DNA from: Mycobacteriales bacterium
GTDB taxonomy: Bacteria; Actinomycetota; Actinomycetes; Mycobacteriales; SCTD01
NCBI GenBank assembly: GCA_030447385.1
Contig: JAUJOY010000002.1
Span: 578,081 to 642,080, forward strand
Length of the DNA: 64,000 nt
Reading direction: 5' to 3'
A model generated the notes under the pieces. The model was not told where the DNA came from. It was given only the letters and a program-made list of their open reading frames with translations, and made no database searches. Positions 7,943 through 33,066 of the stretch are shown here, one piece after another (position 1 is the stretch's first letter; every line of letters begins with the position of its first letter). The position numbers and the translations under genes were made by a program.

Positions 7943-8132
7943 GGCTCCACCCTACGGTCTTCGGGCTGCACCGGCCGGTCGGCGCAGTGACGAACAGTGA
8001 CGACGAAGTGTGCCCGTATGTCCGCTTTAGAGAGATAAACCCGTCATCTTGTGCGTTCTCGGCGCCGTACAGGGGAGAATCCAATCCGGTGCGGAGTCGT
8101 TGTGGCTTCTGAACCGGACTGGAGGGGGTGGC

Positions 8133-9161: not shown

Positions 9162-9164
9162 GCT

Positions 9165-10310: not shown

Positions 10311-10935
10311 GTGCCTGGGGGCGCAGGACCTGCTGGCCGACGAGGGCGTTCAGGTGGGTTATCCCTGCGACCGGCCGGTTGCCGAACCGCTGCGACTGGG
10401 GCCCTCGGCCCGCCTGCGCAGCGGGACGGTGCTCTACGTCGGCTCGGTGATCGGAGCCCGGTTCAGCACCGGCCACAACGTGGTCATCCGAGAGGAGTCG
10501 ACGCTGGGGGACGACGTGAGCGTCTGGAGCAACAGCGTCGTCGACTACGGCTGCCGCGTCGGGCACCGGGTCAAGATCCACGCTGGTTGCTACGTGGCGC
10601 AGTTCAGCGAGATCGACGACGAGGCATTTCTCGCGCCCGGCGTCTGCTTCGCCAACGACCTGTACCCGGGCTCGGAGGCTTCCGCTGCGGCCATGCGCGG
10701 GCCGCGCGTGGGCGCAGGGGCGCAGCTGGGCGTGAACGTGACGGTCCTGCCCTACGTCCGCATCGGCCCCGGCGCCATCATCGGCGCCGGATCGGTGGTG
10801 GTGCATGACGTCCCGGCGGGCAAGGTGGCCGTCGGCTCGCCGGCTCGAGTGGTCGGAGACGTCCCGGACGCGGCGGCGGTCGAGCAGCGCCTGGCTTCCC
10901 TGCCGGCTGCGCTCGAGGGGATGAGGCCACGATGA
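10300..10935 (+). CDS. Hexapeptide-repeat (left-handed beta-helix) sugar N-acetyltransferase
   Basis: Repeated [LIV]G-x4 hexapeptide pattern. Overlaps both neighbours. Confidence 0.75.
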   Translation: MPAECLGAQDLLADEGVQVGYPCDRPVAEPLRLGPSARLRSGTVLYVGSVIGARFSTGHNVVIREESTLGDDVSVWSNSVVDYGCRVGHRVKIHAGCYVAQFSEIDDEAFLAPGVCFANDLYPGSEASAAAMRGPRVGAGAQLGVNVTVLPYVRIGPGAIIGAGSVVVHDVPAGKVAVGSPARVVGDVPDAAAVEQRLASLPAALEGMRPR

Positions 10936-11729
10936 CCAGGCGGGTCGTGCCGGCCGCGGCCCAGCGCAGGGCGTCCTGGGACACAGCACGCCACGTGGCC
11001 CTGCTGCGTACCGCCCGCGCCGCCCCTGATCTGGCCACGTCGGATCAGGATGCCCAGAGCCCGCAGCGTCCTCGAGGTCACAGGCCTCCTCCGCAGCAGG
11101 GCGGCTACCTGCTCGCCAAGCGCAGCCTCGACATCGCCGTGTCCGCTGTCCTGCTGCTCCTGCTGCTCCCCGCACTCCTGCTGATCGCCGCCGCCGTGCG
11201 GCTGACCAGCCCCGGTCCGTCACTGTTCCGGCAGGTGCGCGTCGGCCGGGACGGGCAGCCGTTCGTGATGCTGAAGTTCCGCTCCATGCGGGTCAACAGC
11301 GACGACGCCGCGCACCGCGCCTACGTGCGGGCCCTGCTGGTCGAGGACGCACCACCGGACGGGGGCCTTCCCGGGGTCTACAAGCTGGCCCGGGATCCGC
11401 GCGTCACGCCCGTCGGCGTGCTGCTGCGCCGGACGAGCCTGGATGAGCTGCCCCAGCTGTTCAACGTGCTCCGGGGCCAGATGTCGCTCGTCGGGCCCAG
11501 GCCTGCCCTGGCGTGGGAAGTGGAGCTGTACGAGCCGGAGCATCGCCGCCGACTGGACGTCCTGCCTGGGCTCACCGGCCTGTGGCAGGTGAGCGGCCGA
11601 AGCACGCTCACCATGAGGGAGGCCCTGGATCTGGACGTCCAGTACGCTGCCAGGTGTGGCTGGTCGCTAGACCTGCGCATCCTGTGCCGTACTCCTGCGG
11701 CGTTGCGAGGCCGCTCCGGTGCCAGATAG
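10932..11729 (+). CDS. Polyprenyl-phosphate sugar-phosphate transferase (bacterial sugar transferase, WbaP/PglC-like)
   Basis: KRSLDIAVSAVLLLLLLP TM hairpin, MLKFRSM, DELPQLFNVLRGQMSLVGPRP. ATGA start/stop overlap with the acetyltransferase. Confidence 0.8.
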   Translation: MTRRVVPAAAQRRASWDTARHVALLRTARAAPDLATSDQDAQSPQRPRGHRPPPQQGGYLLAKRSLDIAVSAVLLLLLLPALLLIAAAVRLTSPGPSLFRQVRVGRDGQPFVMLKFRSMRVNSDDAAHRAYVRALLVEDAPPDGGLPGVYKLARDPRVTPVGVLLRRTSLDELPQLFNVLRGQMSLVGPRPALAWEVELYEPEHRRRLDVLPGLTGLWQVSGRSTLTMREALDLDVQYAARCGWSLDLRILCRTPAALRGRSGAR

Positions 11730-13215
11730 AGCCGGGCCCACGGATCCCCCGGAGGCGGGTGTCGTGTCATCGGCCAGCTGGGCCCCACGACCCGACGTGA
11801 CCCCGCGGGCCGAGGCCAGGGTGCAGGCAACCGAGCCGGAGACCGAGGACGACCAGGAACCCTTCAGCGACATCGGCTGGGAGGCTTCCGGGTGGAATCT
11901 GCTCCCCCCGCCGGTTGAAGGTCCGCCTCCCACCGCGCAGCCGCAGGCTGCCGCGGGGGACAGGCTGGACCATGTGGACCCGCCGTGGGCGGTTGGGCAG
12001 ACCGGGAGTGGTTGGCCGACGCAGACGGGCACCGTAGAGCCCGACAGCCTCGCCGAGGTAGCCGCACCCGCAACGGCGGACCGCGACAACCTGGACCGTG
12101 ACAGTCCAGGCCGATCCGCACCACAGGACGCCGCTCCGCCCCGGGAGGTCCAGCACAGTTTGCCGCTGTCCCACACGAGCACTCGGGACCCCGACCAGCG
12201 GCGCCCAGCTCAGGTAGAGCCTATGTCGACGCAGGCTGTGCGGGCGCCCTTCGAGGTCGATCCGCCGGGAAGAAGCGACCCCACGACGTCGTCGCTGCAG
12301 GAGCCCGGCGTCGCGAGACCCCGCCGCGCCCCCCGGTTCGGGCTGGGCATCCAGTCCTGGTCGGTGCGCCGCCTGGCCATAATGAGCACTCTCGTCCTCG
12401 TGCTCGCCGTGCTCACCGGCTACCTCGCCAGTGCCGTTCAGCCAACCGTCTACGCGGCTCAAGCCGACGTACTCTACGAGGTCACCGGGAGTGCCCAGGA
12501 AGGCGAGCGCCAACTGGCGACCCAGGAGGTGCTGCTCGGCAGCCGCGGGGTCCTCGCGCCCGCCGCAGAGCGCTTCGACGTCCCCCTCCGCGAGCTCACG
12601 CGCTCGCAACGGGTCGAGCAGATCGCGGGCAGCCAGGTTCTTCGGACCGAGGTCCGGAACCAGGATCCCGCTTTGGCTGTGCAGCTGGCGCAAGCCATCG
12701 CGGACAGCTACGTCGGCTCGGTCTCGAGTGGCGAGCTGGACACCGGGGTGGAGCAGGAGCGGCGCCTTCGTGACGAGATCACCGACCTGTCCATCACGGT
12801 GGCGACCGGGCGCGCACGGCTCGAGCAGATCGCCGCTGCCCGGGCGGCCGCGGTGGGTCAGGGGGGCGCCCTCGCGGCCACCCCTGAGGAACGTCAGCTG
12901 CAACTGCAGGACACCGGCCTCTCCCAGCGCATCAGCGCCCTGCAGGCCCAGCTGACAGAGATCCTCGTGGCGCGCGAGAACGCCAACAGTGCGCGAGTCC
13001 TCACGCCGGCCTACCTGCTCGATGAGCCGGTCGGGCCGCGTCCCCTGCGCGCCGCGGCGGCCGGGGCCCTGCTCGGGATCCTCCTGATCGCCGGCCTGCT
13101 CGCGCTGGCCTCCAGGAGGCGCCCCGGGGAGCCTGGAGCCGTGACCCATCGGCGCGAACCGGCCAGCTTCGCAGCCGGAGCCGGCAGGGGCAGCACCGCC
13201 GGGCGGCCTTCTTGA
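11719..13215 (+). CDS. Polysaccharide chain-length determinant-like (Wzz/PCP) protein with Pro-rich N-terminal extension
   Basis: Two TM segments bracket a coiled-coil extracytoplasmic region. No kinase domain. Start uncertain. Confidence 0.5.
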   Translation: MPDRAGPTDPPEAGVVSSASWAPRPDVTPRAEARVQATEPETEDDQEPFSDIGWEASGWNLLPPPVEGPPPTAQPQAAAGDRLDHVDPPWAVGQTGSGWPTQTGTVEPDSLAEVAAPATADRDNLDRDSPGRSAPQDAAPPREVQHSLPLSHTSTRDPDQRRPAQVEPMSTQAVRAPFEVDPPGRSDPTTSSLQEPGVARPRRAPRFGLGIQSWSVRRLAIMSTLVLVLAVLTGYLASAVQPTVYAAQADVLYEVTGSAQEGERQLATQEVLLGSRGVLAPAAERFDVPLRELTRSQRVEQIAGSQVLRTEVRNQDPALAVQLAQAIADSYVGSVSSGELDTGVEQERRLRDEITDLSITVATGRARLEQIAAARAAAVGQGGALAATPEERQLQLQDTGLSQRISALQAQLTEILVARENANSARVLTPAYLLDEPVGPRPLRAAAAGALLGILLIAGLLALASRRRPGEPGAVTHRREPASFAAGAGRGSTAGRPS

Positions 13216-14714
13216 GCGTCGCAGCGCCGTACCGCTCGGCAGGCTCCCCGGAGACCGTGCGAGCTGCCACCTCCACCGACACAGCAGTGGCCGCTTCGCG
13301 CCCGTCCGGGTCGCCGACGGTCGGCATACTCGCCACCGCCTGCGTCGCCGGGCTGCTGGCCGCATGGTCGCCCCTGCTGTCGGTCGCTCTCGGCTTCGTC
13401 CTGCTGCTCGTCGCGATCGTCGCCGTTCGCCCAGTCGTCGGGACCTACCTCGTCCTGGGGCTGACGCCCCTGCTGGCCGGCATGGATCGCGGAGTGCTGG
13501 TTCCGCTGCTGCGCCCCAATGAGGCTCTGGCGGCGTTCGTCGGCGGGATCCTCATCGTCCGCGTCGTGGTTCTCTGGCTGCGCGGCCGTCGCTGGCGGCC
13601 GAGGGTGCGCCGCATCGACCTGGCGCTGCTCCTGCTCGCGTTCACCTCCTCGGTCCTGCCCGTCCTGTGGCTGGCTGCCCGGGGCGCAGACCTGACGGGC
13701 GACGACCTCCAGTACTCCGTCATGTTGTGGAAGTACTTCTTCCTGTACCTGCTCGTCCGCTGCACCGTGCGCACGGGGCGCGCGGTCGAACGGTGTCTGT
13801 GGATCGTCCTGCTCACCGCAGCGATGGTGGCCGCGGTCGCCATCCTGCAGTCTCTGCAGGTGCCCGGCGTCCTGTCGTTGGTCTCGACCTTCTACGCCCC
13901 GTTCGGCGACCAGGGCGCGGTGACCAACCAGCGCGGCACGTCCACCCTGGCGTCCTCGATCGCAGTCGGTGACGTCATGGCCTACTCCTTGGCCATCGGC
14001 CTCGGCTGGTTGCTGACCGGAGGCCGGCATCGGGGACTCCTCGTCGCCCTGTGTATCCTGCTCGTGCTCGGCGGGCTCGGGTCCGGGCAGTTCTCCGGCG
14101 TGATCGCGCTGGTTGTTGCGGTGGGCGCCGTCGGCTTCATCACCGGCCGGCTGCGGCGGGCTGCGGTGGCAGCCGTGCCTGCGGCCGCCGTGGGAGCGCT
14201 GCTGCTGCGGCCTGTCATCGAGCGACGGCTCGAGGGCTTCTCCTCCCGAGAGGGCCTGCCGAGCAGCTGGGTCGGCCGCTTGGAGAACCTCCAGACGTTC
14301 TTCTGGCCGGAGCTCTTCTCCAACTTCAACTTCCTGCTGGGTGTGCGCCCGTCGGCCCGAGTTCCCGCCCCGGAGACCTGGCGCGACTTCGTCTGGATCG
14401 AGAGCGGGCACACGTGGTTGCTCTGGTCGGGCGGAGTTCCGCTGTTCCTGGCCTTCTTCTACTTCCTGTGGACCGCCCTGCGCGACGTCGGCAGGGTCGC
14501 GCGCCAGCGCACGGACGCCATCGGGACGGCGGCGGTGGGGTGCTTCGCCGCGCTGTGCGTGCTCGGGGTGCTCATGACCCTTGACCTTCACCTTACGCTG
14601 CGTGGCTCCGCCGACCTGCTCTTCCCCCTGCTGGCACTGGCCCTGACGCGGCCCGAGTCTTCTTCAGCGAGCGGCAGAGCCGTCGTCTCGAGGCCCGTAG
14701 CCGCGCCGGTGTGA
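13212..14714 (+). CDS. O-antigen polymerase/ligase-like (Wzy family) polytopic membrane protein
   Basis: About 10-12 hydrophobic helices with one large loop. Start overlaps the upstream stop. Confidence 0.55.
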   Translation: MSVAAPYRSAGSPETVRAATSTDTAVAASRPSGSPTVGILATACVAGLLAAWSPLLSVALGFVLLLVAIVAVRPVVGTYLVLGLTPLLAGMDRGVLVPLLRPNEALAAFVGGILIVRVVVLWLRGRRWRPRVRRIDLALLLLAFTSSVLPVLWLAARGADLTGDDLQYSVMLWKYFFLYLLVRCTVRTGRAVERCLWIVLLTAAMVAAVAILQSLQVPGVLSLVSTFYAPFGDQGAVTNQRGTSTLASSIAVGDVMAYSLAIGLGWLLTGGRHRGLLVALCILLVLGGLGSGQFSGVIALVVAVGAVGFITGRLRRAAVAAVPAAAVGALLLRPVIERRLEGFSSREGLPSSWVGRLENLQTFFWPELFSNFNFLLGVRPSARVPAPETWRDFVWIESGHTWLLWSGGVPLFLAFFYFLWTALRDVGRVARQRTDAIGTAAVGCFAALCVLGVLMTLDLHLTLRGSADLLFPLLALALTRPESSSASGRAVVSRPVAAPV

Positions 14715-15922
14715 GCGGACGCCGCGCGGACCGGCGGCGCAGGGTGCTCATCCTGCTGGAGAACCTGCCGCTGGAGAAGGACCCGAGGGTGCGCCGCGAG
14801 TGCACCGCACTGCTCGCAGCCGGGTATGCCGTGTCCGTCGTCTGCCCAGCCGGTTCCGGCACCGGCCTCGACGGCCTGCAGGCGGTGTCCCTGCATGCCT
14901 ACCCGCCTCCGCCGGAGGCCCGCGGCCCGTGGGGGTTCGTCTACGAGTTCGGCTACTCGTGGGTCATGACCGCCATGCTCACACTCAGGGCGTTCCTGGT
15001 CGAGGGCTTCGCCGTCATCCAGGGCTGCAACCCGCCCGACACGGCTTTCGCCATCGCGTGGCCGTACCGGCTGATCGGCATCCCCTACGTCTTCGACCAC
15101 CACGATCTCAGTCCTGAAGTATTCACGGCGAAGTACGGCAAGACCTCCGGGCGGGTGCTCGAGGCGCTCCTGATGCTGGAGCGGGCGACCTACCGCACGG
15201 CTGACCACGTCATCGCCACCAACGACGCCTTCCGCCAGGTGGCGATGGAGCGCGGCAACAAGAGCGCCCAGCAGATCACCGTTGTGCGCAACGGTCCGGA
15301 GCTGTCGAAGGCTGTCCGGCGGGAGCCGCGGCCGGAGTTGCGCCGTGGGCGCGCCCACCTGTGCTGCTGGCTCGGCCTGATGTTCGCCGACGACGGGCTG
15401 GAGCTGGCGCTGCAGGCTGTCGCCGAGCTCGTGCACGTCCGCCGTCGGCAGGACTGCCACTTCGCGTTCGTGGGTGACGGTGAGAAGATCACCGCGGTGC
15501 GGGAGCAGGCCCGGCGCCTCGACGTCGAGGACTGGGTGAGCTTTCCAGGCTGGATCCCGTTGCACGACGCCTTCGACTACCTGTCGACTGCCGACCTGGG
15601 GCTCTCTCCCAACCCGAAGAGCCCACGGCTGGATGTCTCGACGAGCATGAAGGTCATGGAGTACATGGCGTTCGACCTGCCTGTCGTGGCCTTCGACGTC
15701 GACGAGACCCGCTACTCAGCTGGAGACGCAGCCGTCTACGCGACCGGCAACGACCCGAGCGAGTACGCCCGGCTGATCGACGAGCTGCTCGACGACCCTG
15801 CGCAGCGCGCACGCATGGGGCTGGCCGGCCGCGCCAGGGTCGAGGACGGCCTGGCGTGGGATCACCAGCGGCTCGCCTACGTCAAGGTGTACGAACGACT
15901 GATCGGGCACCCCACAGGCTGA
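14711..15922 (+). CDS. GT4 family glycosyltransferase
   Basis: GTGA overlap with the upstream gene. GT-B layout with a C-terminal E-x7-E-like region (MKVMEYMAFDLPVVA). Confidence 0.8.
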   Translation: MSGRRADRRRRVLILLENLPLEKDPRVRRECTALLAAGYAVSVVCPAGSGTGLDGLQAVSLHAYPPPPEARGPWGFVYEFGYSWVMTAMLTLRAFLVEGFAVIQGCNPPDTAFAIAWPYRLIGIPYVFDHHDLSPEVFTAKYGKTSGRVLEALLMLERATYRTADHVIATNDAFRQVAMERGNKSAQQITVVRNGPELSKAVRREPRPELRRGRAHLCCWLGLMFADDGLELALQAVAELVHVRRRQDCHFAFVGDGEKITAVREQARRLDVEDWVSFPGWIPLHDAFDYLSTADLGLSPNPKSPRLDVSTSMKVMEYMAFDLPVVAFDVDETRYSAGDAAVYATGNDPSEYARLIDELLDDPAQRARMGLAGRARVEDGLAWDHQRLAYVKVYERLIGHPTG

Positions 15923-16108
15923 GCGGTTGACGGCCTTCCGCTCCGCGCGGGTTCGGCGGAGCTGCCGCGGTCACGTCGCGGTCGGGCGCCGGCGCAGTTG
16001 CGCCGGAGCCTTCAGTGCCGGCCGGGGATTCCCGAAGACACGAGGAGCGGCGCCCGGTCCTGGCGCCCAGACCTGCGCTGCTGCGCGGTGCCTTCCTGAG
16101 GAGCTCCG

Positions 16109-18426
16109 ATGTTCTCCGTACGCTCAAACGACCTGTGGTCTACCGGCGCGGCCCGGGCCGCAGCGGTGTTGGTCGCTCTGGCTCTGATGCTCACCGCCCT
16201 ACCGGCTCTGGCCACACCAGCATCCGCAGCCCCGGTTCTTCAGCTGTCAGCCTCCAGCGGCCCATCTGGTTCCGCTGTCACCGTATCCGGCAACGGCTAC
16301 CCCAAGCGGTCGAGCGGAAGCGTCGTCGTCGGAACCGCCACCTTGGCGAAGTTCAGGACCTCGCCTCAGGGCAGATTCTCGGTGAGCACCAGCATCCCGA
16401 CGACTGCTACGGGAAGGGTGACGGTGATCGGCGTCGTCGGCGTGGCCAGCGCCTCCGCGTTCTTCGACGTCATCAGCCCGGAGCCGGTGGTGGAGCCGGT
16501 GGTGGAGCCGGTGGTGGAGCCGGTGGTGGAGCCGGTGGTGGAGCCGGTGGGTCGGGTGGCGCCGCGTCGGGTGGTGGGGGTGCAGGGTCCTAGTGGGGTG
16601 GGTTCGTCGTATGTGGTGGTGACCTGGGATCGCAGTGATGTGGCGGCGTCGGGTTATGAGGTGTCTCGGGACGGTGTGCTGGTCGGGTCGGTGTCGGTGT
16701 CGGGGGATGCTTGGGATGATCTGGATTTCGTTGATGGGTCGGTGCCGGGGTCGCGCGGTTATGACTATCGGGTGCGGGCGAGGTTCGGCGATGGTTCGTG
16801 GAGTGCTTGGTCGTCACCGGCTCGGGTGTTCGTGAGGTCGGATGCGGATCTGGGGTCGGGGCGGGTGTTCTTGGTTGATGGCTTCGGCGGTTCTGATCGT
16901 GAGCGGGTGCAGGCTGCGGTGAATGCGGCGGTGTCGGCTGGTGGTGGGGTGGTGCAGTTCGGGGCGCGGACGTATGCGCTGGATGCGCCGGTGGAGGTGA
17001 CAGCGGCGGACAATGTGGTGTTGCGGGGGCGGGGATGGAGCGCACGTTCGTGCAGCCCTCGTTCGCGGGGGAGTCGGCGACGTGTGGGTCGGGGGGCCGG
17101 TTGATCGGGTTCACCGGGAAGCGGACGACGTTGGCGGCGAAGCTGACCTCGCCGGTGGCGGTGGGGGACCGGGTGTTGCGGGTGGACTCGACCAGTGGTT
17201 TCGCGGTGGGTCGCCGGCTGGTGCTGTTCGAGCCGTCGCCGGTCAGTGATGGCTCTCCGTTTGACTATGCCGCTGCCGGTGTGGTGCAGGATCCGGGGAC
17301 AGGTCGGGATGAGCGGCATCGTTGGGATGCCTCGCAGATCGTGGCGGTGGACAGCACGGCCAAGACGGTGACGCTCAAGGACGCGTTGTCGCAGTCGTTC
17401 AGCACTGCGGTGCCGTTGGTGTGGCTGGAGAAGGGCAATGGCAACGGGTTGGAGTCGATGACCGTGCAGGGTCGTTCGGCGAGCGAGACCACGCACTACC
17501 GCCTGGTCGACCTCAACCATCAGGGCGGGTTCCGGATGGCGGAGGTGCAGGGTCGTTGGGCGAACCGCAACTATGTGCGGGCCAATGGCTACGACATCTC
17601 GGTGGTGGGGTTCCGCGGTCCGTTGGGTGACCCGGGGGGCACTGACGGGACGTGCAAGTACAAGTTCAGCGTGTGGCGCTCGGCGAACTTCACCTTCGTC
17701 AACGGGGTGATGGGGGAGCAGACGCACAGCCAGAACACCTCGTTCATCACCACCCAGCGCGCTCAGCGCACGCTGGTGCGCAACTCGGTCTTCCACGGCA
17801 ACCGCACCTACGCGTTCAACGAGCACGGCCTGGGCTCACGGCACTACGTGTTCGAGAACAACTACGTCGCGGTCGGTGCGCTGGCCAAGGCCGGGGTGTT
17901 CGTGGGCAACAGCTCGTGGGGCTTCTCCGGCGCCGGGATCATCCGTAACAACACGTTCTCCGGCAACAGCCGCGACATCGCGATGCAGGAGAACGGCTAC
18001 GAGATCCGGATCCTGGACAACACCATGCGCGGCACCATCGACCGGGTCGTGACCGGCTATGGCTGGGGCGCTCCGTTCACCGCTCCCGCCCTGCACGGGT
18101 CACTGCGCTGGACCATCAGCGGCAACCGCATCGAGGGCGCCAAGAAGGACGGCATCGTGCTGGGTGAAGCCACCAGCCCCTGGTACCCCTACGGCGGCGT
18201 CAAGGACCTGGTCATCACCGGCAACCACCTCGACGTGCCCGGAACCGCGATCCACCTGGCCGGCACCAGCACCACCACCAACCGCCTCCAGGTCAGCAAC
18301 AACACCGGCACCAACCGCTACCTCAAGCCACCCCTGACAACAGGCAGCCTGTGGACCGGCAACGCCGACAACATCACCTACGGCTCACCCACCGCCGTCC
18401 CCTGGACCCAACCCTACTTCCCCTGA
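16109..18426 (+). pseudogene. Secreted Ig-like + FN3-like + right-handed beta-helix (pectate-lyase-fold) protein, split by a 1-nt frame change
   Basis: Signal peptide, Ig/IPT-like module (SGPSGSAVTVSGNGY), (PVVE)5 linker and FN3-like module. The beta-helix begins GGVVQFGARTYAL...NVVLRG, and the frame changes inside G-runs at 17025-17034 before MERTFVQP. Repeated NN-x-F/I-x-GN turns run to the stop at 18426. Confidence 0.6.
16481..16552 (+). repeat. 12-bp in-frame tandem repeat gagccggtggtg (five perfect units plus one partial; PVVE linker)
   Basis: Read directly from the sequence. Confidence 0.95.
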
Positions 18427-18442
18427 CCCCCCCGCCGCCTCC
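16505..18442. repeat. Direct repeat copy 1 (about 1.94 kb)
   Basis: Translations in several frames are identical to those of 19069-21004 (offsets 2562-2564). Confidence 0.9.
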
Positions 18443-18622
18443 TGAGGACGTCGTCCCCTGCCCGGCGGGGTGACGGTCTGCGTCGGACTGTGGTGGCTCG
18501 CCTCAAGATGGGAAGCGACGATGCCGAACAGGTGGGAGATCTCACCCTCACGTCATGGGTATGAGCAGGCGGACCACCTGGAAGCGGGCGGCCGCCGGAC
18601 AAGAGCAGTGGAGGAGCAGCGG

Positions 18623-20989
18623 ATGCCTGGTCAACCGGTTCGCCGTGCCAGAGCTGCTGCTGGCCTGCTCGCGCTGCTGCTGATGTGTGTCGGGGCGCTC
18701 GGGGCCTTGGAGATCCGCCCGACCAGTGCGGCCGAAACCGCAGTGCCCCGGCTCGCGCTGACCCCTCCTCAGCCGCGGCGGGCACATCGGTGCTCGCCAC
18801 CGGAACCGGCTTCGAGGCCGGCATGGTGGGCGTAGTGAGCATCCTCGAGCAGAAACCTCCTCGACACGCTACGACTCCCCGGACGGCTCGGTCGGCATCA
18901 GCGCGCACAGCGTGAACGCGCGGCAGCCTGGCCACCTTCCTGACCGGTGCCGAGGGCGGCTTCAGCGTCACCGTGACGATGCCCACTGGACTGACCGGCA
19001 GTGCGACCCTGCGGGCTGCGACGCCTGGCGGGGCTGCACAGGCGAGCTTCACCGTGCAGAGCGTGCCTCCGCCGGTGGTGGAGCCGGTGGTGGAGCCGGT
19101 GGTGGAGCCGGTGGGTCGGGTGGCGCCGCGTCGGGTGGTGGGGGTGCAGGGTCCTAGTGGGGTGGGTTCGTCGTATGTGGTGGTGACCTGGGATCGCAGT
19201 GATGTGGCGGCGTCGGGTTATGAGGTGTCTCGGGACGGTGTGCTGGTCGGGTCGGTGTCGGTGTCGGGGGATGCTTGGGATGATCTGGATTTCGTTGATG
19301 GGTCGGTGCCGGGGTCGCGCGGTTATGACTATCGGGTGCGGGCGAGGTTCGGCGATGGTTCGTGGAGTGCTTGGTCGTCACCGGCTCGGGTGTTCGTGAG
19401 GTCGGATGCGGATCTGGGGTCGGGGCGGGTGTCTTGGTTGATGGCTTCGGCGGTTCTGATCGTGAGCGGGTGCAGGCTGCGGTGAATGCGGCGGTGTCGG
19501 CTGGTGGTGGGGTGGTGCAGTTCGGGGCGCGGACGTATGCGCTGGATGCGCCGGTGGAGGTGACAGCGGCGGACAATGTGGTGTTGCGGGGGCGGGGATG
19601 GAGCGCACGTTCGTGCAGCCCTCGTTCGCGGGGGAGTCGGCGACGTGTGGGTCGGGGGGCCGGTTGATCGGGTTCACCGGGAAGCGGACGACGTTGGCGG
19701 CGAAGCTGACCTCGCCGGTGGCGGTGGGGGACCGGGTGTTGCGGGTGGACTCGACCAGTGGTTTCGCGGTGGGTCGCCGGCTGGTGCTGTTCGAGCCGTC
19801 GCCGGTCAGTGATGGCTCTCCGTTTGACTATGCCGCTGCCGGTGTGGTGCAGGATCCGGGGACAGGTCGGGATGAGCGGCATCGTTGGGATGCCTCGCAG
19901 ATCGTGGCGGTGGACAGCACGGCCAAGACGGTGACGCTCAAGGACGCGTTGTCGCAGTCGTTCAGCACTGCGGTGCCGTTGGTGTGGCTGGAGAAGGGCA
20001 ATGGCAACGGGTTGGAGTCGATGACCGTGCAGGGTCGTTCGGCGAGCGAGACCACGCACTACCGCCTGGTCGACCTCAACCATCAGGGCGGGTTCCGGAT
20101 GGCGGAGGTGCAGGGTCGTTGGGCGAACCGCAACTATGTGCGGGCCAATGGCTACGACATCTCGGTGGTGGGGTTCCGCGGTCCGTTGGGTGACCCGGGG
20201 GCACTGACGGGACGTGCAAGTACAAGTTCAGCGTGTGGCGCTCGGCGAACTTCACCTTCGTCAACGGGGTGATGGGGGAGCAGACGCACAGCCAGAACAC
20301 CTCGTTCATCACCACCCAGCGCGCTCAGCGCACGCTGGTGCGCAACTCGGTCTTCCACGGCAACCGCACCTACGCGTTCAACGAGCACGGCCTGGGCTCA
20401 CGGCACTACGTGTTCGAGAACAACTACGTCGCGGTCGGTGCGCTGGCCAAGGCCGGGGTGTTCGTGGGCAACATACTCGTGGGGCTTCTCCGGCGCCGGG
20501 ATCATCCGTAACAACACGTTCTCCGGCAACAGCCGCGACATCGCGATGCAGGAGAACGGCTACGAGATCCGGATCCTGGACAACACCATGCGCGGCACCA
20601 TCGACCGGGTCGTGACCGGCTATGGCTGGGGCGCTCCGTTCACCGCTCCCGCCCTGCACGGGTCACTGCGCTGGACCATCAGCGGCAACCGCATCGAGGG
20701 CGCCAAGAAGGACGGCATCGTGCTGGGTGAAGCCACCAGCCCCTGGTACCCCTACGGCGGCGTCAAGGACCTGGTCATCACCGGCAACCACCTCGACGTG
20801 CCCGGAACCGCGATCCACCTGGCCGGCACCAGCACCACCACCAACCGCCTCCAGGTCAGCAACAACACCGGCACCAACCGCTACCTCAAGCCACCCCTGA
20901 CAACAGGCAGCCTGTGGACCGGCAACGCCGACAACATCACCTACGGCTCACCCACCGCCGTCCCCTGGACCCAACCCTACTTCCCCTGA
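18623..20989 (+). pseudogene. Decayed paralogue of the beta-helix protein (multiple frameshifts and one in-frame stop)
   Basis: GGAGGAG RBS plus ATG 18623 and a signal peptide. A diverged Ig-like module is spread over three frames with TGA at 18913-18915. The 3' 1.9 kb is near-identical to 16505-18442 but has extra indels near 19440, 20197-20201 and 20473-20475. Confidence 0.65.
19069..19116 (+). repeat. Same 12-bp tandem repeat, shorter array (two perfect units plus partial flanks)
   Basis: Read directly from the sequence. Confidence 0.95.
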
Positions 20990-21004
20990 CCCCCCCGCCG
21001 CCTC
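19069..21004. repeat. Direct repeat copy 2 (about 1.94 kb)
   Basis: Same as copy 1 apart from three small indels. It ends 16 bp after the shared stop codon. Confidence 0.9.
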
Positions 21005-22339
21005 GTCGTAGGTACGGAGCACCACGCGATGCTTGCCGGCACGGGTCCGCAGGATGGGCTCCGAGGTCGCCAGCTCCACCACGACCCGTGAGCCGCACCG
21101 GTCACGGAAGTAGCCCCGCAACAGCTGGGTCTCGCCCTCGGACAACTTGCCGTCCACCTCGAGCCGCACCGTGATCCGGTCAGGCGCTTCCTGCACGACC
21201 TGCCACAGGCGCACGTTCGGGCAACGCTTGAAGACAGCCCCGAAAGCGAGGGCGGACAGCTCGCGACCGTCTGGCAGCAGGATGCGGTCCCCCTGCCGCC
21301 CGGCGATCCGCTGCAGGGTCGTGCCGGGGCGCCCGCACGGACAAGCACCTTCCACTGCAGTGGCACGATCACCCACCTGGTAGCGCAGGAAGGGCAGGAC
21401 ACGGGTGTGCAGGTTCGTCACCGTGATCTCCCCTCGGCTCCCGGGGGGCAGCGTCTGCCATGATCGTCGAGCACCTCGACGATGGACAGGTTGTCGGCCA
21501 CGTGGAACCGGTCAGCGGTGCAGGTCTGCGCCAGCACCCCACCGTCGTTGCAGCCGTACTCGTCAGCGACGCGCACCCCGAACGCGGTCTCGATCTGCGT
21601 GCGCCACTCCGGCAGGAGGACCTCGAACTGGACAGGATCGCCTTGGGCGGCCGGACCCGCCGACCCTCCTTCAGGACGGCGGCTGCCATGGCCGCCAAGG
21701 TCCCGGCGTAGCCGTACCAGAGGGCGGCACGTGCGTCCGAGGCGAGTCGGGCACGGTGGAGGCTGGTGGCGTGGTCGACGTCGAGGCCGGCGGTCGTGGT
21801 GACCCTGCGCTCGAGGCGGTACCGCAGCGAGGTCTTCCAGCCGGTGCCCCCGGGGCCAGCGACTGCGGCGTGCCGACGAGCACGACGCGCTCACCGTACC
21901 GATAGCCCAGATCTTCTCGGAAGCGCAGCGCAGCGCCGTAGATCTGGCCCCAGCCGTCCTTCCCGAGCGGGTAGCGCCAGGGATCACCCGTGGTGCCGCC
22001 CGTGTGCTTGAGGATGTGGGGAATCTGCTGCCAGTCCTGGCTGAGGAACGCCGACATCGACGGGCGGATCCGGGCCTTGTCCACGACCGGCAGATCCTGC
22101 AGATCGACACTGTTGCGCCCCGCGAGCAGCTCTCGGTAGAAGGGCACGTTGCGCCGGGCATGGTCCACCACGGCAGCGAGCCGCTGCTCCTGCCACTCCG
22201 TCCGGCGCTCACCCGGCCAGGTGTCGAACTCCCGTAGCCATCGGGCGGTGCTGAGGTAGCGCGCCCCGACCGTCGGCTCGATCAGCCGGCGGGTGGTCAT
22301 GCCCAGCAGTGGGACGTACAGGTCGTCGAGGTTCAACAT
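20948..22339 (-). pseudogene. Second CapK-like adenylate-forming enzyme, three frameshifts and altered 3' end
   Basis: Homologous along its full length to the 3565-4935 product (HTGGTTGD, YGCNDGG, VTNLH..LPFLRY, CPCGR). It is spread over three frames, with switches near 21847-21851, about 21620-21635 and 21430-21433. The last 20 codons read into the 1.94-kb repeat. Confidence 0.7.
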
Positions 22340-24075
22340 CAGGCCGACCCACTGCGTCGGCCGAGAGCTCCTTGCGGAGCAGGGCGAGCTCGGGAGATCT
22401 CCACAGGACGTGAACCGCCAGGTAGGCGAGCGTCCCGACGAGTGCCGACAGCAGCAGCGACGTCACCGCCGCGATGCCGTCCCACGGAACCGCGGGCACA
22501 TGCACCGCCGCGACATATGCCGGACCGGCCATGACCGCAGAGGCGACGACCGCGCGGAGGACCGGTGGCCAGCGCGCGAGCCCCCGGGCGGAAGCCCCTT
22601 GCGAACGCTGCGCCCCAGCACGGCCGCGCCCGCCGCACTGCCCAGGGTCACCGACAGGCCTAGCACGACCAGCACAGCTGCTCCCTCGACCATGGCGAGC
22701 GCAAGGGCGATCCCGCCAGCAGCCACGATGCACTTCACCAGCATCGCGCGTAAAGGCGCCTGAGCGTCGTGTCTGGCGTACGAAGCGTAGGTGCCCACGA
22801 CGAACGAGCTCTCCGCGACGACTCCCGCGGCCAACGCGACGAGGGAGAGGGCGATGAGCTCGATGCCCTCCGGTGTCGCCATCTCGCCGAGTGCGGCTGC
22901 TCGCGCCAGGGGGAAGGCCAGCACGGCGTAGGCCACTCCGGCCGGGATCACGAAGAACATGGCGAGGGATGCGCCGCGGGCCAGCTCGTCGCGGAACTGC
23001 CCGCCAGCGTTCCGGTGGTGGGTGCGGGACAGCCGCGGCAGCATCGCCGTGGCCACCGGGCGTGCGCAGGCGGCGACGGGCAGGTGGAAGAAGCTCAGGG
23101 CCAGGTGGAAGGCGACCACGCCGCCCGGCACCCGGTTGGCGACAACGAGAACCCCCAGCACCCGCAACGAGTTGAGGCCGGCGTACCCGAGTGAGGGCAC
23201 CGCCCGCCGGAGCACCCGTCGTACCTCGGCGTCACGCCAGCCGGCGCGGGGCCGCAACAGGACGCCGACCCGTCGTGCCCCCCACCACTGCACACCCGCA
23301 TGCAGAGCGACGGAGGCAGTGGTGCCGGCACCGAGGAGGATGAGCTGACCCAAACCAACCTCCGCCACGTCTGCGCCGGTGCCGAACAGCACGGCGACCA
23401 GTGCCATCGTCGCGATGACCCCGAGGCTCTCGAACGCGGGAGCGGCGGCGGCAAGGGCGAACCTGCCGTGAGCGTTCTGCACGGCCGCGCCGGTTGCCGC
23501 GACGCCGTAGAGGACCACCTGCGGCATGAGCAGGAGGAGCAGGACCCCACCGACCCTGCGCTGGTCGGCCGCCACGGCGGCGTCGTCGACACCCACAGTG
23601 AGCACTCGCATGATCAGGGGAGCCGCCAGCATGAGGCCGGCGGTCACCGCGGTGAAGCCGAGCAGCACCACCCCCAGGAACCCCCGGCAGTCCGGGCGAG
23701 GGCACCCGCGTCGCCATCGTCCACGTGTCGAACGAGCGAGGGGACGAGCAGGGAGGTGAACAGCGCACCGGTCAGGAACTCGTAGGTCAGGTTGGGCACC
23801 AGGTTCGCGGCCTGGAAGACGTTGCCGAAATAGGTCGGCCCCAGGACGGCCGCAACCGTCAGCAGCCGCAACAGGCCGACGAGGCGGCTGACCAGGGTCC
23901 AGAGCGCCACGGAGGCCGACTCGCGCGCCAGCCCGTCCGGCAGAGAGGCCTGGGCAGAGGCGGGCGCCCCCCTGGCGGGTTCGCTGCCAGCCCCAGCGCT
24001 CACCTCGACCGGAGCCGCCAGGAGAGCAGGATCCGGGCTGTGCCGGGCGTCATCGGTCGCGAAGACGCCGGCCAT
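22339..24075 (-). pseudogene. MurJ/MviN-family (MOP) flippase-like protein, at least two frameshifts
   Basis: The N-terminal LVSRLVGLLRLLTVAAVLGPTYFGNVFQAANLVPNL fits the MurJ signature. The frame changes at the C-run 23681-23685 and again around 22590-22630. The likely stop TGA overlaps the ATG at 22339. Confidence 0.6.
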
Positions 24076-24156
24076 CCGGTGTCGTCAAGCGCATCTAGGC
24101 GCCGGCCCCACGGCGCAGCGGACGACAACTGCGGGGCCTGGCTCGTGCGGCTGAGA

Positions 24157-24480
24157 TCAGGCAGTAGCAGGCGTGCGCCGACGACCAGCCACCACGAGCG
24201 CGGTGCCACCGGCCAGCGTGCCTGCACCGAGCAGGCTCAGCAGGACGATGTCCCCACCGGTGAAGGGGAGCGTGTTCGGAGTGGTCCGGCCGGAGACGGT
24301 GCCGGCCCCCTGGTTGCCGGCCCCCTGGTTGACCTGTTCGTCCTGCACCCCGCCGATCGGGGTGCAGGTCCGGGCGTAGGCTTCACAGGCAACCTCCTGG
24401 GCGGAGGCCGCGGGAACACCGGCGAAGCCGACGACACCCAGGACAACGGCACCAGTGGCGAGGCGAGCGGTACGGCGCAT
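24157..24480 (-). CDS. Small LPXTG-anchored cell-wall protein
   Basis: Signal peptide, LPFTGG motif, hydrophobic segment and RRR tail. Confidence 0.7.
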   Translation of the reverse strand: MRRTARLATGAVVLGVVGFAGVPAASAQEVACEAYARTCTPIGGVQDEQVNQGAGNQGAGTVSGRTTPNTLPFTGGDIVLLSLLGAGTLAGGTALVVAGRRRTPATA

Positions 24481-24588
24481 GAGGTTCTCCCAGATGGTTA
24501 CGTGCTGTTACGCCGCACCGTACCACTAGGGACCCGTCTGAACCGCCCGAGATGTCGGAACTTCATCACCCGACCGGGTGAACTTTGC

Positions 24589-25461
24589 TCAGTCGAGGAT
24601 GTCCGGGTTGTCCCGGCGGATCCGCTCCCAGATCGGCTGGAACTGGAACCACCCGGCGAGCTCGAACCCGACCTGCCCGCGGGTGGCCTCGGCCTCGATC
24701 GGATCGATCCGGATCGGGGCGCTGCCGAGCCCGGCAGCCGCCGAGTAGGCCATCAGCTGGGACTGGCAGGTCCGCTCGAGGGTCAGGAACCACCACGCGG
24801 CGCTGTCCACGCTCTCCCCGACGGTCAGCATCCCGTGGTTGCGCAGGATGACGGCCTTGTGCGGGCCGAGGGCGCGGCCGATCCGCGCGCCCTCCTCACT
24901 GTCGAGCACCACGCCCCGGTAGTCGGCGTAGACGCCCACGTCGTCGTAGAAGGCGCACGAGTCCTGCGTCAGGGGCTCGATCGTCATGTCCAGGCTTGAC
25001 AACGTCTTGCCGTACGGCCCGTGCGCGTGAGCGGCGGCCACCACCTCCGGACGAGCGGCGTGCACGGCGCAGTGGATGGCGACGGCAGCACCGTTGACGG
25101 CGCGGGAGCCCTCCACGACGGTCCCGGTGTGGTCCACCCGCACCAGGTCGCTGCTCCTGATCATGCTGAAGTGCATGCCGAACGGGTTCACCCAGAAGGA
25201 GTCGGGGAACTCCGGATCACGCACCGTGACGTGCCCGGCCACCCCCTCGTCCAGGCCGGCCTTGGAGAACATCCGGAACGCTGCCGCCAGCTTGGCCTTG
25301 CGGTGCGCTCGCTCCTGCTCGACGGACGCGAAGGTCTCCGGGAGGGGGAGGTAGAGGCCGGCGCCCACGGACAAGGCCATCGGGCTGCCGGTCTCGGCCT
25401 TCGTCACCAGCTCGTTCGCGTGCTGGGCAGCGACCTCGGCGGGCTGCTCGGTGATGCTCAC
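24589..25461 (-). CDS. Class II aldolase/adducin family protein
   Basis: GHVTVRD, HCAVHAARPEV and AAAHAHGPYG metal-binding His pattern. Confidence 0.75.
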   Translation of the reverse strand: MSITEQPAEVAAQHANELVTKAETGSPMALSVGAGLYLPLPETFASVEQERAHRKAKLAAAFRMFSKAGLDEGVAGHVTVRDPEFPDSFWVNPFGMHFSMIRSSDLVRVDHTGTVVEGSRAVNGAAVAIHCAVHAARPEVVAAAHAHGPYGKTLSSLDMTIEPLTQDSCAFYDDVGVYADYRGVVLDSEEGARIGRALGPHKAVILRNHGMLTVGESVDSAAWWFLTLERTCQSQLMAYSAAAGLGSAPIRIDPIEAEATRGQVGFELAGWFQFQPIWERIRRDNPDILD

Positions 25462-25547
25462 GAAGGCTCCTCCCGTGGCCGGAGCCGGCCGTGCGACCGC
25501 TTCCAGGTCCTGCCAGTGTGCCCCGGGCCGGCGCCGACGTCACCGGG

Positions 25548-26438
25548 TCAGCCCGCCTGCCGGGCTGCCTCGACGGCGGCCCGCTGGTGCGGCAGCGGGT
25601 CCTCAGGTCCGGGAACCCGCTCGGGCCACGGCAGCGGGGTGCCGCCGAACGCCGGGCACAGGGACTGGTGGTCACACCACTCGCACAGCCGGCTCGGCCG
25701 GGGCAGGAACTCCCGCCGCTGCGTGGCGCGCTCGATGGCCTCCCAGAGTGCGAGCAGCTTGCGCTCCGTGGCCCTCAGGTCGGCCTCATCGGGGGAGTAG
25801 CGCAGGATCTCCCGGTCGCCCAGGTACATCAGCTGCAGGACGCGCGGGAGCACGCCGCGGGTGCGCCACAGGACCAGCGCGTAGAACTTCATCTGGAACA
25901 GCGCCTTGCCCTCGAACATCTCCCCGGGCGCTCGACCGGTCTTGTAGTCGACGACGCGCAGGTCGCCGGACGGGGCGAGGTCCAGCCGGTCGACGATGCC
26001 GCGCAGCCGCAGCCCTCCGGCCAGGACCACCTCGACGAGCTGCTCCCGCTCGGCGGGCTCGAGCCGCGTCGGGTCCTCCAGCGTGAAGTAGCCGGCGAGC
26101 AGCTCCCGCGCTTCACCCAGCCAGGCCCTCCGCTCGGCCTCGTCGGTGAACAGCCCGGCCACCTCCGGCTCGGCCGCGACCAGCCGCTCCCACTCCGGCT
26201 GAAGCAGCGCGACCGCCGCGTCCAGCGTGCGCCCCGCGGCGGGCAGGTCGTACAGCCGCTCGAGGACCGAGTGCACCACGGTGCCGCGGGTAGCGGCGGG
26301 TGACGGAGCGGACGGCAGCCGGTCGATGGTGCGGTAGCGGAACAGCAGCGGGCAGGTCATGAAGTCGCCGGCCCGCGAGGGGGACAGGGAGCCCAGCACC
26401 GGCAGCGGCAGGTCCACGGGAGCGGTCGGTGCGGTCAT
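25548..26438 (-). CDS. RecB-family (PD-D/ExK) nuclease with C-terminal Cys cluster
   Basis: SPSRAGDFMTCPLLFRYR, VDYKTG, CEWCDHQSLC. Confidence 0.7.
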   Translation of the reverse strand: MTAPTAPVDLPLPVLGSLSPSRAGDFMTCPLLFRYRTIDRLPSAPSPAATRGTVVHSVLERLYDLPAAGRTLDAAVALLQPEWERLVAAEPEVAGLFTDEAERRAWLGEARELLAGYFTLEDPTRLEPAEREQLVEVVLAGGLRLRGIVDRLDLAPSGDLRVVDYKTGRAPGEMFEGKALFQMKFYALVLWRTRGVLPRVLQLMYLGDREILRYSPDEADLRATERKLLALWEAIERATQRREFLPRPSRLCEWCDHQSLCPAFGGTPLPWPERVPGPEDPLPHQRAAVEAARQAG

Positions 26439-26550
26439 GACGGCAGGCTAGGTCGCCCGTGCGACAGTCTCGGGCTCCCACGCCGGGCCTGGGCACGCCG
26501 GTCCCGGGGCGGCCCCGTCGAGCGGCCCCGAGAGTCGTACTGTCCGACGC

Positions 26551-27690: not shown

Positions 27691-27710
27691 GCGCTGCGAG
27701 CGACGGCGCC

Positions 27711-28643: not shown

Positions 28644-28707
28644 GGTCGGGAACCTCCGGGAGGAAGTGGGCGGGAGGCATCGTGGCAGAGGTGGGACGGT
28701 TGCCGTC

Positions 28708-29070
28708 GTGGAGGGAGCGCAGGTGGAGGACCCCGTGCTCGCCGCCGTGCTCTCGGCACTGGCCGGCCCCCGGACCGGGGACGCGGTGGCCGCCGTCGGC
28801 GTCGGACCGATGGTCGTGCGGTCGCTGCTGGCGGCCTCCCAGACCGAGGAGCTGGTGGACGCCGACGCCCGGGTCGTGGTCGCCGGGGCGGCGTTCGACG
28901 TCCCGACCGCCCTCCTCCGGCTGGCCCCGGGCGGGCGGCTGGTGGCGGTCGCCGCCGACGCCGGCGCGGCCGGGCGGGTGGCTGCCGCGGCCGGGCTGGA
29001 GATGCGCTCGGTGCAACCGATCGGCCGGAGGGTCGCGTGGTCGGCCATGCGTCCCGACCGTGGCGACTAG
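28708..29070 (+). CDS. Small hypothetical protein with methyltransferase-fold-like remnants
   Basis: Very high third-position GC. VGVGPM and LRLAPGGRLVAV strings. Start uncertain. Confidence 0.35.
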   Translation: MEGAQVEDPVLAAVLSALAGPRTGDAVAAVGVGPMVVRSLLAASQTEELVDADARVVVAGAAFDVPTALLRLAPGGRLVAVAADAGAAGRVAAAAGLEMRSVQPIGRRVAWSAMRPDRGD

Positions 29071-29079
29071 GTTCGGGCC

Positions 29080-30213: not shown

Positions 30214-30216
30214 CCT

Positions 30217-33046: not shown

Positions 33047-33066
33047 CCGCGACCTAGGGTGGCCTC

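Follow-up and report, generated by a model that had tools for sequence, protein, structure and literature searches.

Probable concerted evolution of the 3′ parts of two adjacent beta-helix genes in a predicted polysaccharide locus of an uncultured actinobacterium

In the window, the whole 64,000-nt stretch of DNA that was analyzed, two adjacent paralogous genes (G1 and G2) share a near-identical 3′ part and differ in their 5′ modules. The best joint explanation, which we consider probable on the basis of sequence comparison, is that the 3′ parts have been homogenized by recombination, and that the genes are intact and the indels that disrupt them in the assembly are mostly consensus errors. 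Judged from gene content, the setting is a predicted cell-surface or exopolysaccharide (EPS) biosynthesis locus of an uncultured high-GC actinobacterium. The locus encodes enzymes typical of amino-uronic-acid sugar synthesis (a GFO oxidoreductase, a DegT aminotransferase, and a hexapeptide acetyltransferase). The conserved left neighbor of G1 is a GT4 glycosyltransferase gene on the forward strand (14711–15922; Pfam Glyco_trans_1_4/Glyco_trans_4_4; the exact protein is in a public collection), which occupies the same position in the comparison sequences L003, L004, and L005.

Repeat search and gapped local alignment place copy 1 of the repeat (W1) at 16507–18441 and copy 2 (W2) at 19071–21004, both on the forward strand. 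The copies are 99.8% identical over 1.94 kb, which far exceeds what could arise by chance, and consist of four exact blocks of 361, 765, 277, and 530 nt (the 100%-identical blocks were reproduced by the repeat search) separated by shifts in offset from 2564 to 2563, 2562, and 2563 nt. The copies differ only by three 1-nt indels, one of them next to a substitution, and each indel breaks the reading frame of copy 2 within a conserved motif: a 1-nt deletion, TT>T, at 19431–19432 (16868–16869 in copy 1) in GRVF(L/V)VD; G6>G5 at 20197–20201 (G6 at 17634–17639 in copy 1) in GDPGGTDG; and AG>ATA at 20473–20475 (AG at 17911–17912), a 1-nt insertion plus the substitution, in GNSSWGF. The first-pass annotation had reported a near-identical direct repeat at 16505–18442 and 19069–21004 with a period of ∼2563 bp and three small changes in copy 2; its coordinates are within 2 nt of the alignment, its period agrees with the offset of 2562–2564 nt, and exactly these changes and no others were found. 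Edges of the repeat are abrupt, with identity switching within a few nucleotides at 16507/19071 and 18441/21004. On the right, the repeat extends 15 nt beyond the stop codons (TGA at 18424–18426 and 20987–20989). The left edge is within a perfect 12-nt tandem array, (GGAGCCGGTGGT)n, that encodes a Pro-Val-Val-Glu (PVVE) linker and has 5.9 units in G1 (16480–16550, forward strand; TRF, 100% matches) and 3.7 units in G2 (19071–19114; TRF), with which copy 2 opens, so the left end can be placed only to within multiples of 12 nt.

Each copy forms the 3′ 1.94 kb of its gene and encodes the linker, an FN3-like domain, and a right-handed beta-helix. Gene G1 (16109–18426, forward strand) was delimited by ORFs, a GC3 phase switch, and frame-restored homology, and encodes a signal peptide, an Ig-like module, the (PVVE)n linker, the FN3-like domain, and the beta-helix. 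As sequenced, G1 is split into two ORFs (16109–17104 and 17035–18426) because of one frameshift, and with one base restored its product of 772 aa aligns over its full length with homologues of 760–769 aa. Its paralogue G2 (18624–20989, forward strand), delimited by translations and a frame-corrected alignment with its counterpart in a relative, is in at least five ORF pieces. The unique segment between the copies (18442–19070, forward strand) covers the intergenic spacer (18427–18623) and the G2-specific 5′ part (18624–19070), which encodes a signal peptide and an Ig-like module. The 5′ parts of the two genes are barely alignable (nucleotide identity of ∼0.5) and their Ig-like modules are 42% identical over 45 aa only, in line with their earlier description as clearly diverged. 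Across the family, N-terminal modules vary: some homologues lack one, and DUF1349 or long Thr/Pro linkers occur in others. Searches of JGI metagenome contigs and of a set of 5.8 billion proteins found neither a relative of the G2 5′ module nor a third haplotype, and a promoter and terminator scan of 15.8–21.3 kb found no sites. The spacer preceding G2 was also considered as an allele of the GT4–G1 junction, as might be seen if strain alleles were assembled in tandem, and was rejected with a local alignment score no better than that of shuffled sequence.

The relative L005 (MAG GCA_030446855.1) has the same G1–G2 order, with counterparts of W1 and W2 that we designate R1 and R2, and a left flank that is ∼99.7% identical to that of the window; its spacer between G1 and G2 is different and carries a DDE transposase fragment. 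Over the repeat, sequences group by genome. In a four-way profile of 150-nt windows, identity is 1.00 between W1 and W2 and between R1 and R2, whereas every W–R pair is at 0.83–0.97, and overall W and R are ∼92% identical (∼8% different; dS of 0.23). Conversely, the 5′ modules group by orthology, with 98–99% identity for W1–R1 and 63–84% for W2–R2 (dS of 0.87, dN/dS of 0.22). Because paralogues are closer within a genome than are orthologues between genomes, and the 5′ flanks show the opposite, the pattern points to concerted evolution and supports gene conversion. The orthologous grouping of the 5′ flanks implies that the duplication is older than the split of the two haplotypes. A plain recent segmental duplication is at odds with a G2 5′ module that is itself old and has an orthologue in the other genome. 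The first-pass annotation had proposed old paralogues overwritten by either gene conversion or segmental duplication; the comparison upholds conversion and sets aside plain recent duplication. A comparison of copy number in related genomes, which it had suggested, revealed the two-copy state in L005 as well, with R1 and R2 identical at the substitution level.

Tract boundaries also differ between the two genomes. W1 and R1 have three mismatches before 16550 and 160 after it, so that divergence begins just past the 12-nt linker array (the first mismatch after the array is at 16562). Tract edges in the relative are likewise abrupt (L005 11800/15413 and 13692/17303), and the left boundary is shifted by ∼36 nt from one genome to the other, as independent events would produce. 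A scan of genome contigs found only two further relatives, which are distant and single-copy.

Both assemblies are derived from metagenomes, probably from related samples and pipelines, and are therefore not fully independent witnesses. This bears on the possibility that the second copy, or its perfect identity, was made by the assembler or polisher, whether from a collapsed repeat used twice, from strain alleles placed in tandem, or from short-read polishing that homogenized diverged copies. The source shows long-read-type errors and was evidently assembled from a metagenome. The sequence of L005 was scaffolded from k=55 contigs, with N gaps between them (a sister record bears the title "opera_contig"), and seems to be chimeric in part: an R-type cassette gives way to W-type sequence across a single N, a probable haplotype join exactly 55 nt before the repeat end, so both haplotypes occur together in one scaffold. 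We nevertheless regard such an artifact as unlikely. The two copies carry different indels, indicating that a separate consensus was called for each and that no single contig was pasted in twice, and the G2 5′ module belongs to a real gene that is under selection and orthologous in both haplotypes, and that must have its own 3′ part. Moreover, the G1–G2 order recurs with a different, IS-fragment-bearing spacer in a gap-free stretch of L005, and clean erasure of ∼150 substitutions by polishing in two separate assemblies is improbable. The earlier remark that the layout is a classic site for assembly error is apt for base-level errors; the two-copy layout, however, recurs in a second assembly, where the spacer differs.

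Under the preferred explanation, homologous recombination between G1 and G2 would repeatedly overwrite the 3′ 1.94 kb of one gene with that of the other, through nonreciprocal gene conversion or through cycles of unequal exchange with the same effect. The conversion tract would stop on the left in the linker array, where homology ends, and on the right ∼15 nt past the stop codon. Concerted evolution would be the outcome: within a genome the predicted catalytic parts match exactly, and between the two locus haplotypes they are ∼8% apart, while the 5′ modules evolve independently. PVVE-type linker units, which are of the G1 type, are present in G2 of the window and absent from G2 of the relative, suggesting that the last event in the window copied G1 onto G2. 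Between haplotypes, dS is ∼0.23–0.27 for the 3′ parts and for the downstream CapK-like and MurJ-like genes versus 0.03 for the left flank, and the 3′ parts fall in a strain-variable block together with these two genes. In the living cell, G1 and G2 are probably both intact and their repeat copies the same.

As sequenced, neither G1 nor G2 is an intact ORF. One frameshift site is common to both copies, at 17025–17029 in copy 1 (GGGG-GCGGGG, with one base missing inside an L-R-G-A-G motif) and at 19588–19592 in copy 2, within an identical alignment block on the same strand. The motif is invariant in homologues; in the relative, R2 is intact at this site (GGGGCGCGGGG) and R1 has the deletion. In total, G2 has at least seven frameshifts, ∼3 of them in its 5′ part. 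The CapK_C-like gene, which is convergent with G2 (20981–22336, reverse strand), has three (C5>C4 at 21429, CC>C at 21623, and C6>C5 at 21846), as seen in tblastn HSPs in three frames and in indel lists against L005 and against the 99.5%-identical L006. The MurJ-like flippase gene (22362–23910, reverse strand) has two or three (+GA at 22363–22364, C6>C5 at 22580, and C6>C5 at 23680), for a total of 5–6 in these two genes. The shared frameshift, the seven or more in G2, and those in the CapK-like and MurJ-like genes were missed in the first-pass annotation, as was the lack of an intact ORF in either G1 or G2.

Nearly all frameshifts at the locus are 1-nt losses in G/C runs, and most indels are such losses in runs of 5–6. 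Indels outnumber substitutions in each comparison: 3:1 for W1 and W2, 5:0 for R1 and R2, and 6:5 in 3 kb for the window and the 99.5%-identical L006 (pooled, 14:6; P ∼2e-10 if indels are 10% of real changes). Lesions are not common to W2 and R2, nor to R1 and R2, and dN/dS is indicative of purifying selection in the repeat (0.18), CapK (0.21), MurJ (0.16), and the G2 5′ part (0.22). The excess of indels, the lesions not shared with the relative, and purifying selection together suggest that the copy-distinguishing indels, the shared frameshift, and the frameshifts in the G2 5′ part and in CapK and MurJ are most likely uncorrected long-read consensus errors. The three copy-2 changes would then probably be sequencing errors rather than divergence, although AG>ATA is not a homopolymer error and counts against this reading. 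For the lesion common to W1, W2, and R1, a genuine mutation that conversion then spread is another possible origin. Indels cluster at 16–27 kb and are not window-wide, a distribution that fits a region that is hard to polish and would fit local gene decay too. Programmed frameshifting or phase variation was rejected given many lesions per gene, short runs, and lesions not shared between assemblies; long homopolymer or short-repeat tracts of the kind expected in a phase-variable contingency locus were not found, the tracts being 2–6 nt and one change being outside any repeat.

Under decay, the frameshifts would be genuine: this strain would be losing a polysaccharide module in which G1, G2, and the CapK-like and MurJ-like genes have become pseudogenes, and conversion would have carried the shared frameshift from one copy to the other. 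At least 13 frameshifts in four adjacent genes (16.1–23.9 kb), flanks that are gap-free relative to L005 (4.7–16 and 27–40 kb), and the lesion shared by W1, W2, and R1 are in line with this, but we judge it improbable: an indel to substitution ratio of ∼1 or higher, made up almost only of 1-nt losses in G/C runs, is unlike natural decay, dN/dS is ∼0.2 in all four genes, and in L006 a near-identical copy of the CapK-like and MurJ-like genes has an open reading frame. The relative also has different indels of its own in other genes, such as those for a PDDEXK protein and for a 379-aa protein at 26551–27690, indicating noise in both assemblies over this region. Least credible, and in our view very improbable, is an origin without conversion, in which a very recent tandem duplication of G1 was followed by replacement of the 5′ end of the new copy by a foreign signal-peptide/Ig module: variable N-terminal modules in the family and the IS fragment between the copies of the relative are compatible with it, but the same rare two-step event would have had to bring the same orthologous G2 5′ module (W2–R2 dS as above) to the same place separately in two haplotypes, when conversion accounts for the pattern with one ordinary process.

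Products of G1 and G2 are predicted to be secreted beta-helix proteins of the capsule/EPS-depolymerase type (putative lyase, hydrolase, or epimerase). Pfam scores for Beta_helix (34.6 bits, threshold of 25.9) and NosD (28.4 bits, threshold of 23.6) exceed thresholds, and homologues score alike. An AF2 model made from an alignment of 36 sequences (pLDDT of 95.4, pTM of 0.94) replaced one from seven sequences (pLDDT of 60), and its fold matches, with those in Pfam, bear out the beta-helix portion described earlier. The FN3 portion is better called FN3-like: Pfam fn3 is below threshold (13.6 vs. 25 bits), with support from a profile match to the Fn3-like 3mpc (E of 2e-5) and a TM-score of 0.69, normalized to the target, against the FN3-like modules of CbhA. 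All 49 PDB matches at E ≤ 1e-3 (Foldseek) are described as polysaccharide-active enzymes or phage tail proteins, mostly of known beta-helix types, with the sole exception of an FN3-module match (3pe9). Best among them are Klebsiella phage and K1 capsule depolymerases, phage tailspikes, a GH28 exopolygalacturonase, and AlgE epimerases.

In the model, the predicted fold is closest to capsule/EPS depolymerases, namely Klebsiella phage K64-1 S2-4 (9k4a), the K1-capsule lyase (7w1c, 7w1d), Acinetobacter phage AP22 gp54 (4y9v), and Pseudomonas phage LKA1 gp49 (4ru4), at E of 4e-11 to 1e-10 and a probability of 1.0, with TM-scores of only 0.34–0.51 and sequence identities of 12–15%. Like these enzymes, G1 and G2 have a surface-polysaccharide context, on which their products may act. 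Unlike phage depolymerases, they are chromosomal genes in a biosynthesis locus rather than parts of a phage tail, and their products have a signal peptide and presumably do not form a trimeric tailspike. AlgE-type mannuronan C5-epimerases (2pyg, 5lw3, 8xfq) and the GH28 exopolygalacturonase 2uve match the fold at E of 1e-8 to 1e-10. The latter has an N-terminal FN3 domain and thus the same FN3-plus-beta-helix order, and the former share a context with a locus encoding amino-uronic-acid sugar enzymes. The significant profile match to AlgE-type epimerases (E of 4e-8) covers only the beta-helix N-cap (∼55 residues; query 159–216); a second stretch is not significant, and the catalytic region has no significant alignment to that of AlgE/AlgG. 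The catalytic motif of AlgE is YGFDPHE, and a conserved TYAFNEHG was considered as its counterpart and is not supported by the profile alignment.

Bacterial paralogues that evolve in concert by gene conversion include tufA/tufB and rRNA operons. Surveys of prokaryotes address gene conversion between paralogues (PMC6053082), and gene-conversion hotspots are described in antigen families of M. tuberculosis (PMC13061034). Homogenization of G1 and G2 would be a known, ordinary kind of event: as in known cases, paralogues are closer within a genome than are orthologues between genomes, edges are sharp where homology ends, and both copies are under purifying selection. The genes differ from known cases in that only a part (linker, FN3-like domain, and beta-helix) is homogenized while the 5′ targeting modules stay distinct, in that the copies lie next to each other as direct repeats at a distance of 2.56 kb, and in that the homogenized part sits in a strain-variable polysaccharide cassette.

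The locus is also a caution that long-read or hybrid metagenome assemblies keep homopolymer indel errors in exact repeats and strain-variable loci, where intact genes are then mistaken for pseudogenes and identical repeats seem to have diverged slightly; four genes at this locus would otherwise be annotated as pseudogenes. For the organism, it offers a clean example of partial-gene concerted evolution in an uncultured actinobacterium, backed by a comparison of two haplotypes, in which two predicted secreted polysaccharide-active enzymes have the same predicted catalytic body and different N-terminal modules, and in which the homogenized part covaries with strain-specific polysaccharide genes. 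More tentatively, and with less chance of being right than wrong by a good measure, the 3′ parts and the CapK-like and MurJ-like genes may be a swappable, serotype-like cassette, with the G1 5′ module in the conserved flank and the PVVE array as the recombination joint for domain-level exchange, and conversion may match both enzymes to the polysaccharide of the cassette. If so, homogenization of G1 and G2 would be selected rather than incidental, and would keep two enzymes with different Ig-like targeting modules matched to that polysaccharide.

Gapped local alignment of the window, which has a G+C content of ~70%, recovers direct repeats at 16507-18441 (W1) and 19071-21004 (W2), the 3' parts of two tandem paralogous genes for secreted beta-helix proteins, G1 (16109-18426) and G2 (18624-20989). 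W1 and W2 are identical over four blocks (361, 765, 277, and 530 nt), and between the blocks W2 differs by a 1-nt deletion (TT>T, 19431), G6>G5 (20197-20201), and AG>ATA (20473-5), and by nothing else. The first-pass annotation had described this repeat and three changes in its second copy; its coordinates hold to within 2 nt and all three changes are present. The left edge of the repeat lies inside a perfect 12-nt tandem array coding for Pro-Val-Val-Glu (5.9 units at 16480-16550 in G1 and 3.7 units at 19071-19114 in G2), and the right edge is 15 nt beyond the stop codons of both genes.

A cluster mate (≥90% identity) of the GT4 glycosyltransferase encoded in the window is on a 488-kb contig of metagenome-assembled genome GCA_030446855.1. 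The check for copy state in a related genome found two copies in the corresponding locus of this relative (L005), which has the same G1-G2 pair separated by a longer spacer with a DDE_Tnp_1_4 fragment inside. L005 is ~99.7% identical to the window across 4745-16550, and 160 of the 197 mismatches in 13.7 kb are beyond 16550. In a four-way alignment with the repeat copies of the relative (R1 and R2), W1 equals W2 and R1 equals R2 along the same 1.9 kb, whereas all W-R comparisons range from 83% to 97% identity. The 5' parts group in the opposite manner (W1-R1, 98-99%; W2-R2, 63-84%; W1-W2, ~50%). Grouping by genome in the repeat and by gene in the 5' parts is the standard signature of concerted evolution. 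On these alignments, homogenization must have occurred after the two haplotypes (W-type and R-type) split, and separately in each. The proposal in the first-pass annotation that gene conversion overwrote parts of old paralogs is thus supported, with the repeat pairing by genome and the 5' modules by orthology.

The left boundary of identity is not the same in both genomes. The G2 linker has three G1-type PVVE units in the window and is PAPEPVAEPVPVPVVPVV in the relative, where identity of R2 with R1 begins ~36 nt further 3'. The differing boundaries fit independent homogenization events, and the window event is suggested to have had a direction from G1 to G2. The spacer in L005 (13693-14930) has a truncated transposase of 149 aa (14099-14548, − strand) that covers profile positions 33-173 of 435; the spacer of the window is only 182 nt and is unrelated.

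Nei-Gojobori estimates between haplotypes place the divergence of the homogenized part at the same level as that of the adjoining variable genes: dS is 0.23 for the repeat (3' 1.9 kb; dN/dS 0.18), 0.26 for the CapK-like gene (dN/dS 0.21), and 0.265 for the MurJ-like gene (dN/dS 0.16). The G2 5' part has a dS of 0.87 (dN/dS 0.22) and the G1 5' part a dS of 0.027, with 0 nonsynonymous differences and dN/dS not estimable. All of these are selected genes now, or were until very recently.

As sequenced, the genes are interrupted. GC3 phase and ORFs indicate that the coding frame of W1 changes from frame 2 (16109-17104) to frame 1 (17035-18426) at 17025-29 (GGGG-GCGGGG). One base added at this site yields a G1 protein of 772 aa that matches homologs of 760-769 aa along 97-98% of its sequence and regains an L-R-G-A-G motif invariant in them. 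The lesion is also in W2 because the site falls within an identical block, and the three changes private to W2 each disrupt a conserved motif (GRVF(L/V)VD, GDPGGTDG, and GNSSWGF). G2 starts at ATG 18624 (+ strand), and its 5' part, with ~3 further shifts, is readable only after frame correction against the relative. Therefore, G1 has one frameshift and G2 has at least seven.

In the window, the reading frames of the CapK-like and MurJ-like genes are interrupted as well, each gene having tblastn HSPs in three frames; both are open in L006, a stretch further along the same contig of the relative that is 99.5% identical to window 20950-34928. At 20950-23910, the window differs from L006 by six indels (C5>C4, CC>C, C6>C5, +GA, C6>C5, and C6>C5) and just five substitutions. 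Five indels, located in homopolymer or dinucleotide runs, and no substitutions separate R1 from R2; three indels and one substitution separate W1 from W2. The pooled ratio, 14 indels to six substitutions, has a probability of ~2e-10 if indels make up 10% of genuine changes. Nor are the lesions common to all copies. R2 has an intact GGGGCGCGGGG where a base is missing in W1, W2, and R1, its 5' part is a single ORF save for a 2-nt deletion of its own, and the relative has its own errors where the window is intact (in the PDDEXK gene and in the gene of a 379-aa protein, the latter at 26551-27690). Window and relative align with no gaps over 27044-40058 and over most of the left flank. We infer that the assemblies are of hybrid or long-read metagenome type and that incompletely polished long reads supplied the sequence of the repeat and of the strain-variable region. 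The frameshifts in all four genes and the small differences between W1 and W2 are probably sequencing errors; a real W1/W2 difference at a low level (<1%) is possible. Each of the two downstream genes (CapK_C-like and MurJ-like; 20981-23910, − strand) has two to three frameshifts, almost all of them 1-nt losses in C5/C6 runs. Farther along, 24307-24416 has a dense cluster of mismatches and 6-nt and 2-nt indels relative to L006, inside or beside a small ORF homologous to a 104-aa protein of L003, a locus of a more distant relative, and appears to be a local hypervariable patch.

That the repeat itself is an assembly artifact is improbable. W1 and W2 have different indels and are therefore not one contig used twice, the 5' module of G2 is under selection and requires a 3' part, G2 is not preceded by an allele of the GT4-G1 junction, and the G1-G2 layout is found again where a second assembly has no gaps. 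The contig of the relative is a scaffold: one isolated N occurs at L006:1860, and 15850-15949 is a gap of 100 Ns, the two sides of which share 55 nt when placed on the window (34874-34928). A sister record is titled "opera_contig". L006 1862-1916 is 100% identical to the final 55 nt of the window repeat; a single N precedes it, and W-type CapK and MurJ come next, R-type CapK and MurJ being already present in L005. The relative has either two real cassettes or a scaffold that joins two co-occurring strain haplotypes, and its succession of R-type and W-type cassettes may be such a join and not a real double cassette. The length of L006 1862-1916 equals the contig overlap at the 100-N gap, and these matching 55-nt lengths suggest that a de Bruijn graph branched precisely where the repeat ends on the right.

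Pfam Beta_helix and NosD both score above threshold for the G1 protein. With a 36-sequence alignment as input, AlphaFold modeled the FN3-like and beta-helix part at pLDDT 95.4. The best PDB matches of the model in Foldseek are Klebsiella phage and K1-capsule depolymerases, phage tailspikes with polysaccharide lyase or hydrolase activity, an FN3-bearing GH28 exopolygalacturonase, and AlgE mannuronan epimerases. Because sequence-profile similarity to AlgE is significant for the N-cap only, the product of G1 and G2 is classed as a predicted polysaccharide-active beta-helix enzyme and not as an epimerase. The motif T-Y-A-F-N-E-H-G-L-G-S-R (G1 residues ~566-578; window ~17805-17843) is nearly invariant across the family and is a candidate active-site loop; no significant alignment with the AlgE catalytic motif was found. 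N-termini are modular throughout the family, and those of G1 and G2 are 42% identical over 45 aa. The signal-peptide/Ig-like module of G2 (window 18624-19070; L005 ~14927-15322) shows purifying selection when the two haplotypes are compared and had no detectable relatives in JGI metagenome contigs or in a collection of 5.8 billion proteins.

Upstream of G1 are, in order, genes for a GFO/IDH/MocA oxidoreductase, a DegT aminotransferase, a hexapeptide acetyltransferase, an initiating sugar transferase, two ~500-aa proteins without significant family match, and the GT4 glycosyltransferase. Downstream, CapK_C-like and MurJ-like flippase genes are convergent with G2. A second, intact CapK-like ORF (3604-4926, + strand) had no match in a Pfam scan and is 43% identical over 437 aa to the CapK_C protein of L003. 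A Pup-proteasome gene set at ~29080-37640 (+ strand), labeled from Pfam labels of 99.5-99.8%-identical L006 genes (M50 peptidase, TrmI-like methyltransferase, AAA ATPase, Pup ligase family, Pup, and two proteasome subunits), supports an actinobacterial origin. The first three upstream genes form a trio at 8031-10935 (+ strand), and such a trio is typical of the synthesis of 2,3-diacetamido-uronic-acid sugars (WbpB/E/D-like), which hints at an acidic amino-sugar polymer as the product of the locus. Two loci of more distant relatives (L003 and L004; 76% amino acid identity) have one beta-helix gene between GT4 and CapK, and two still more distant relatives likewise have a single match. Concerted evolution by gene conversion is a well-known process (PMC6053082, PMC13061034), and G1 and G2 are probably a new instance of it.
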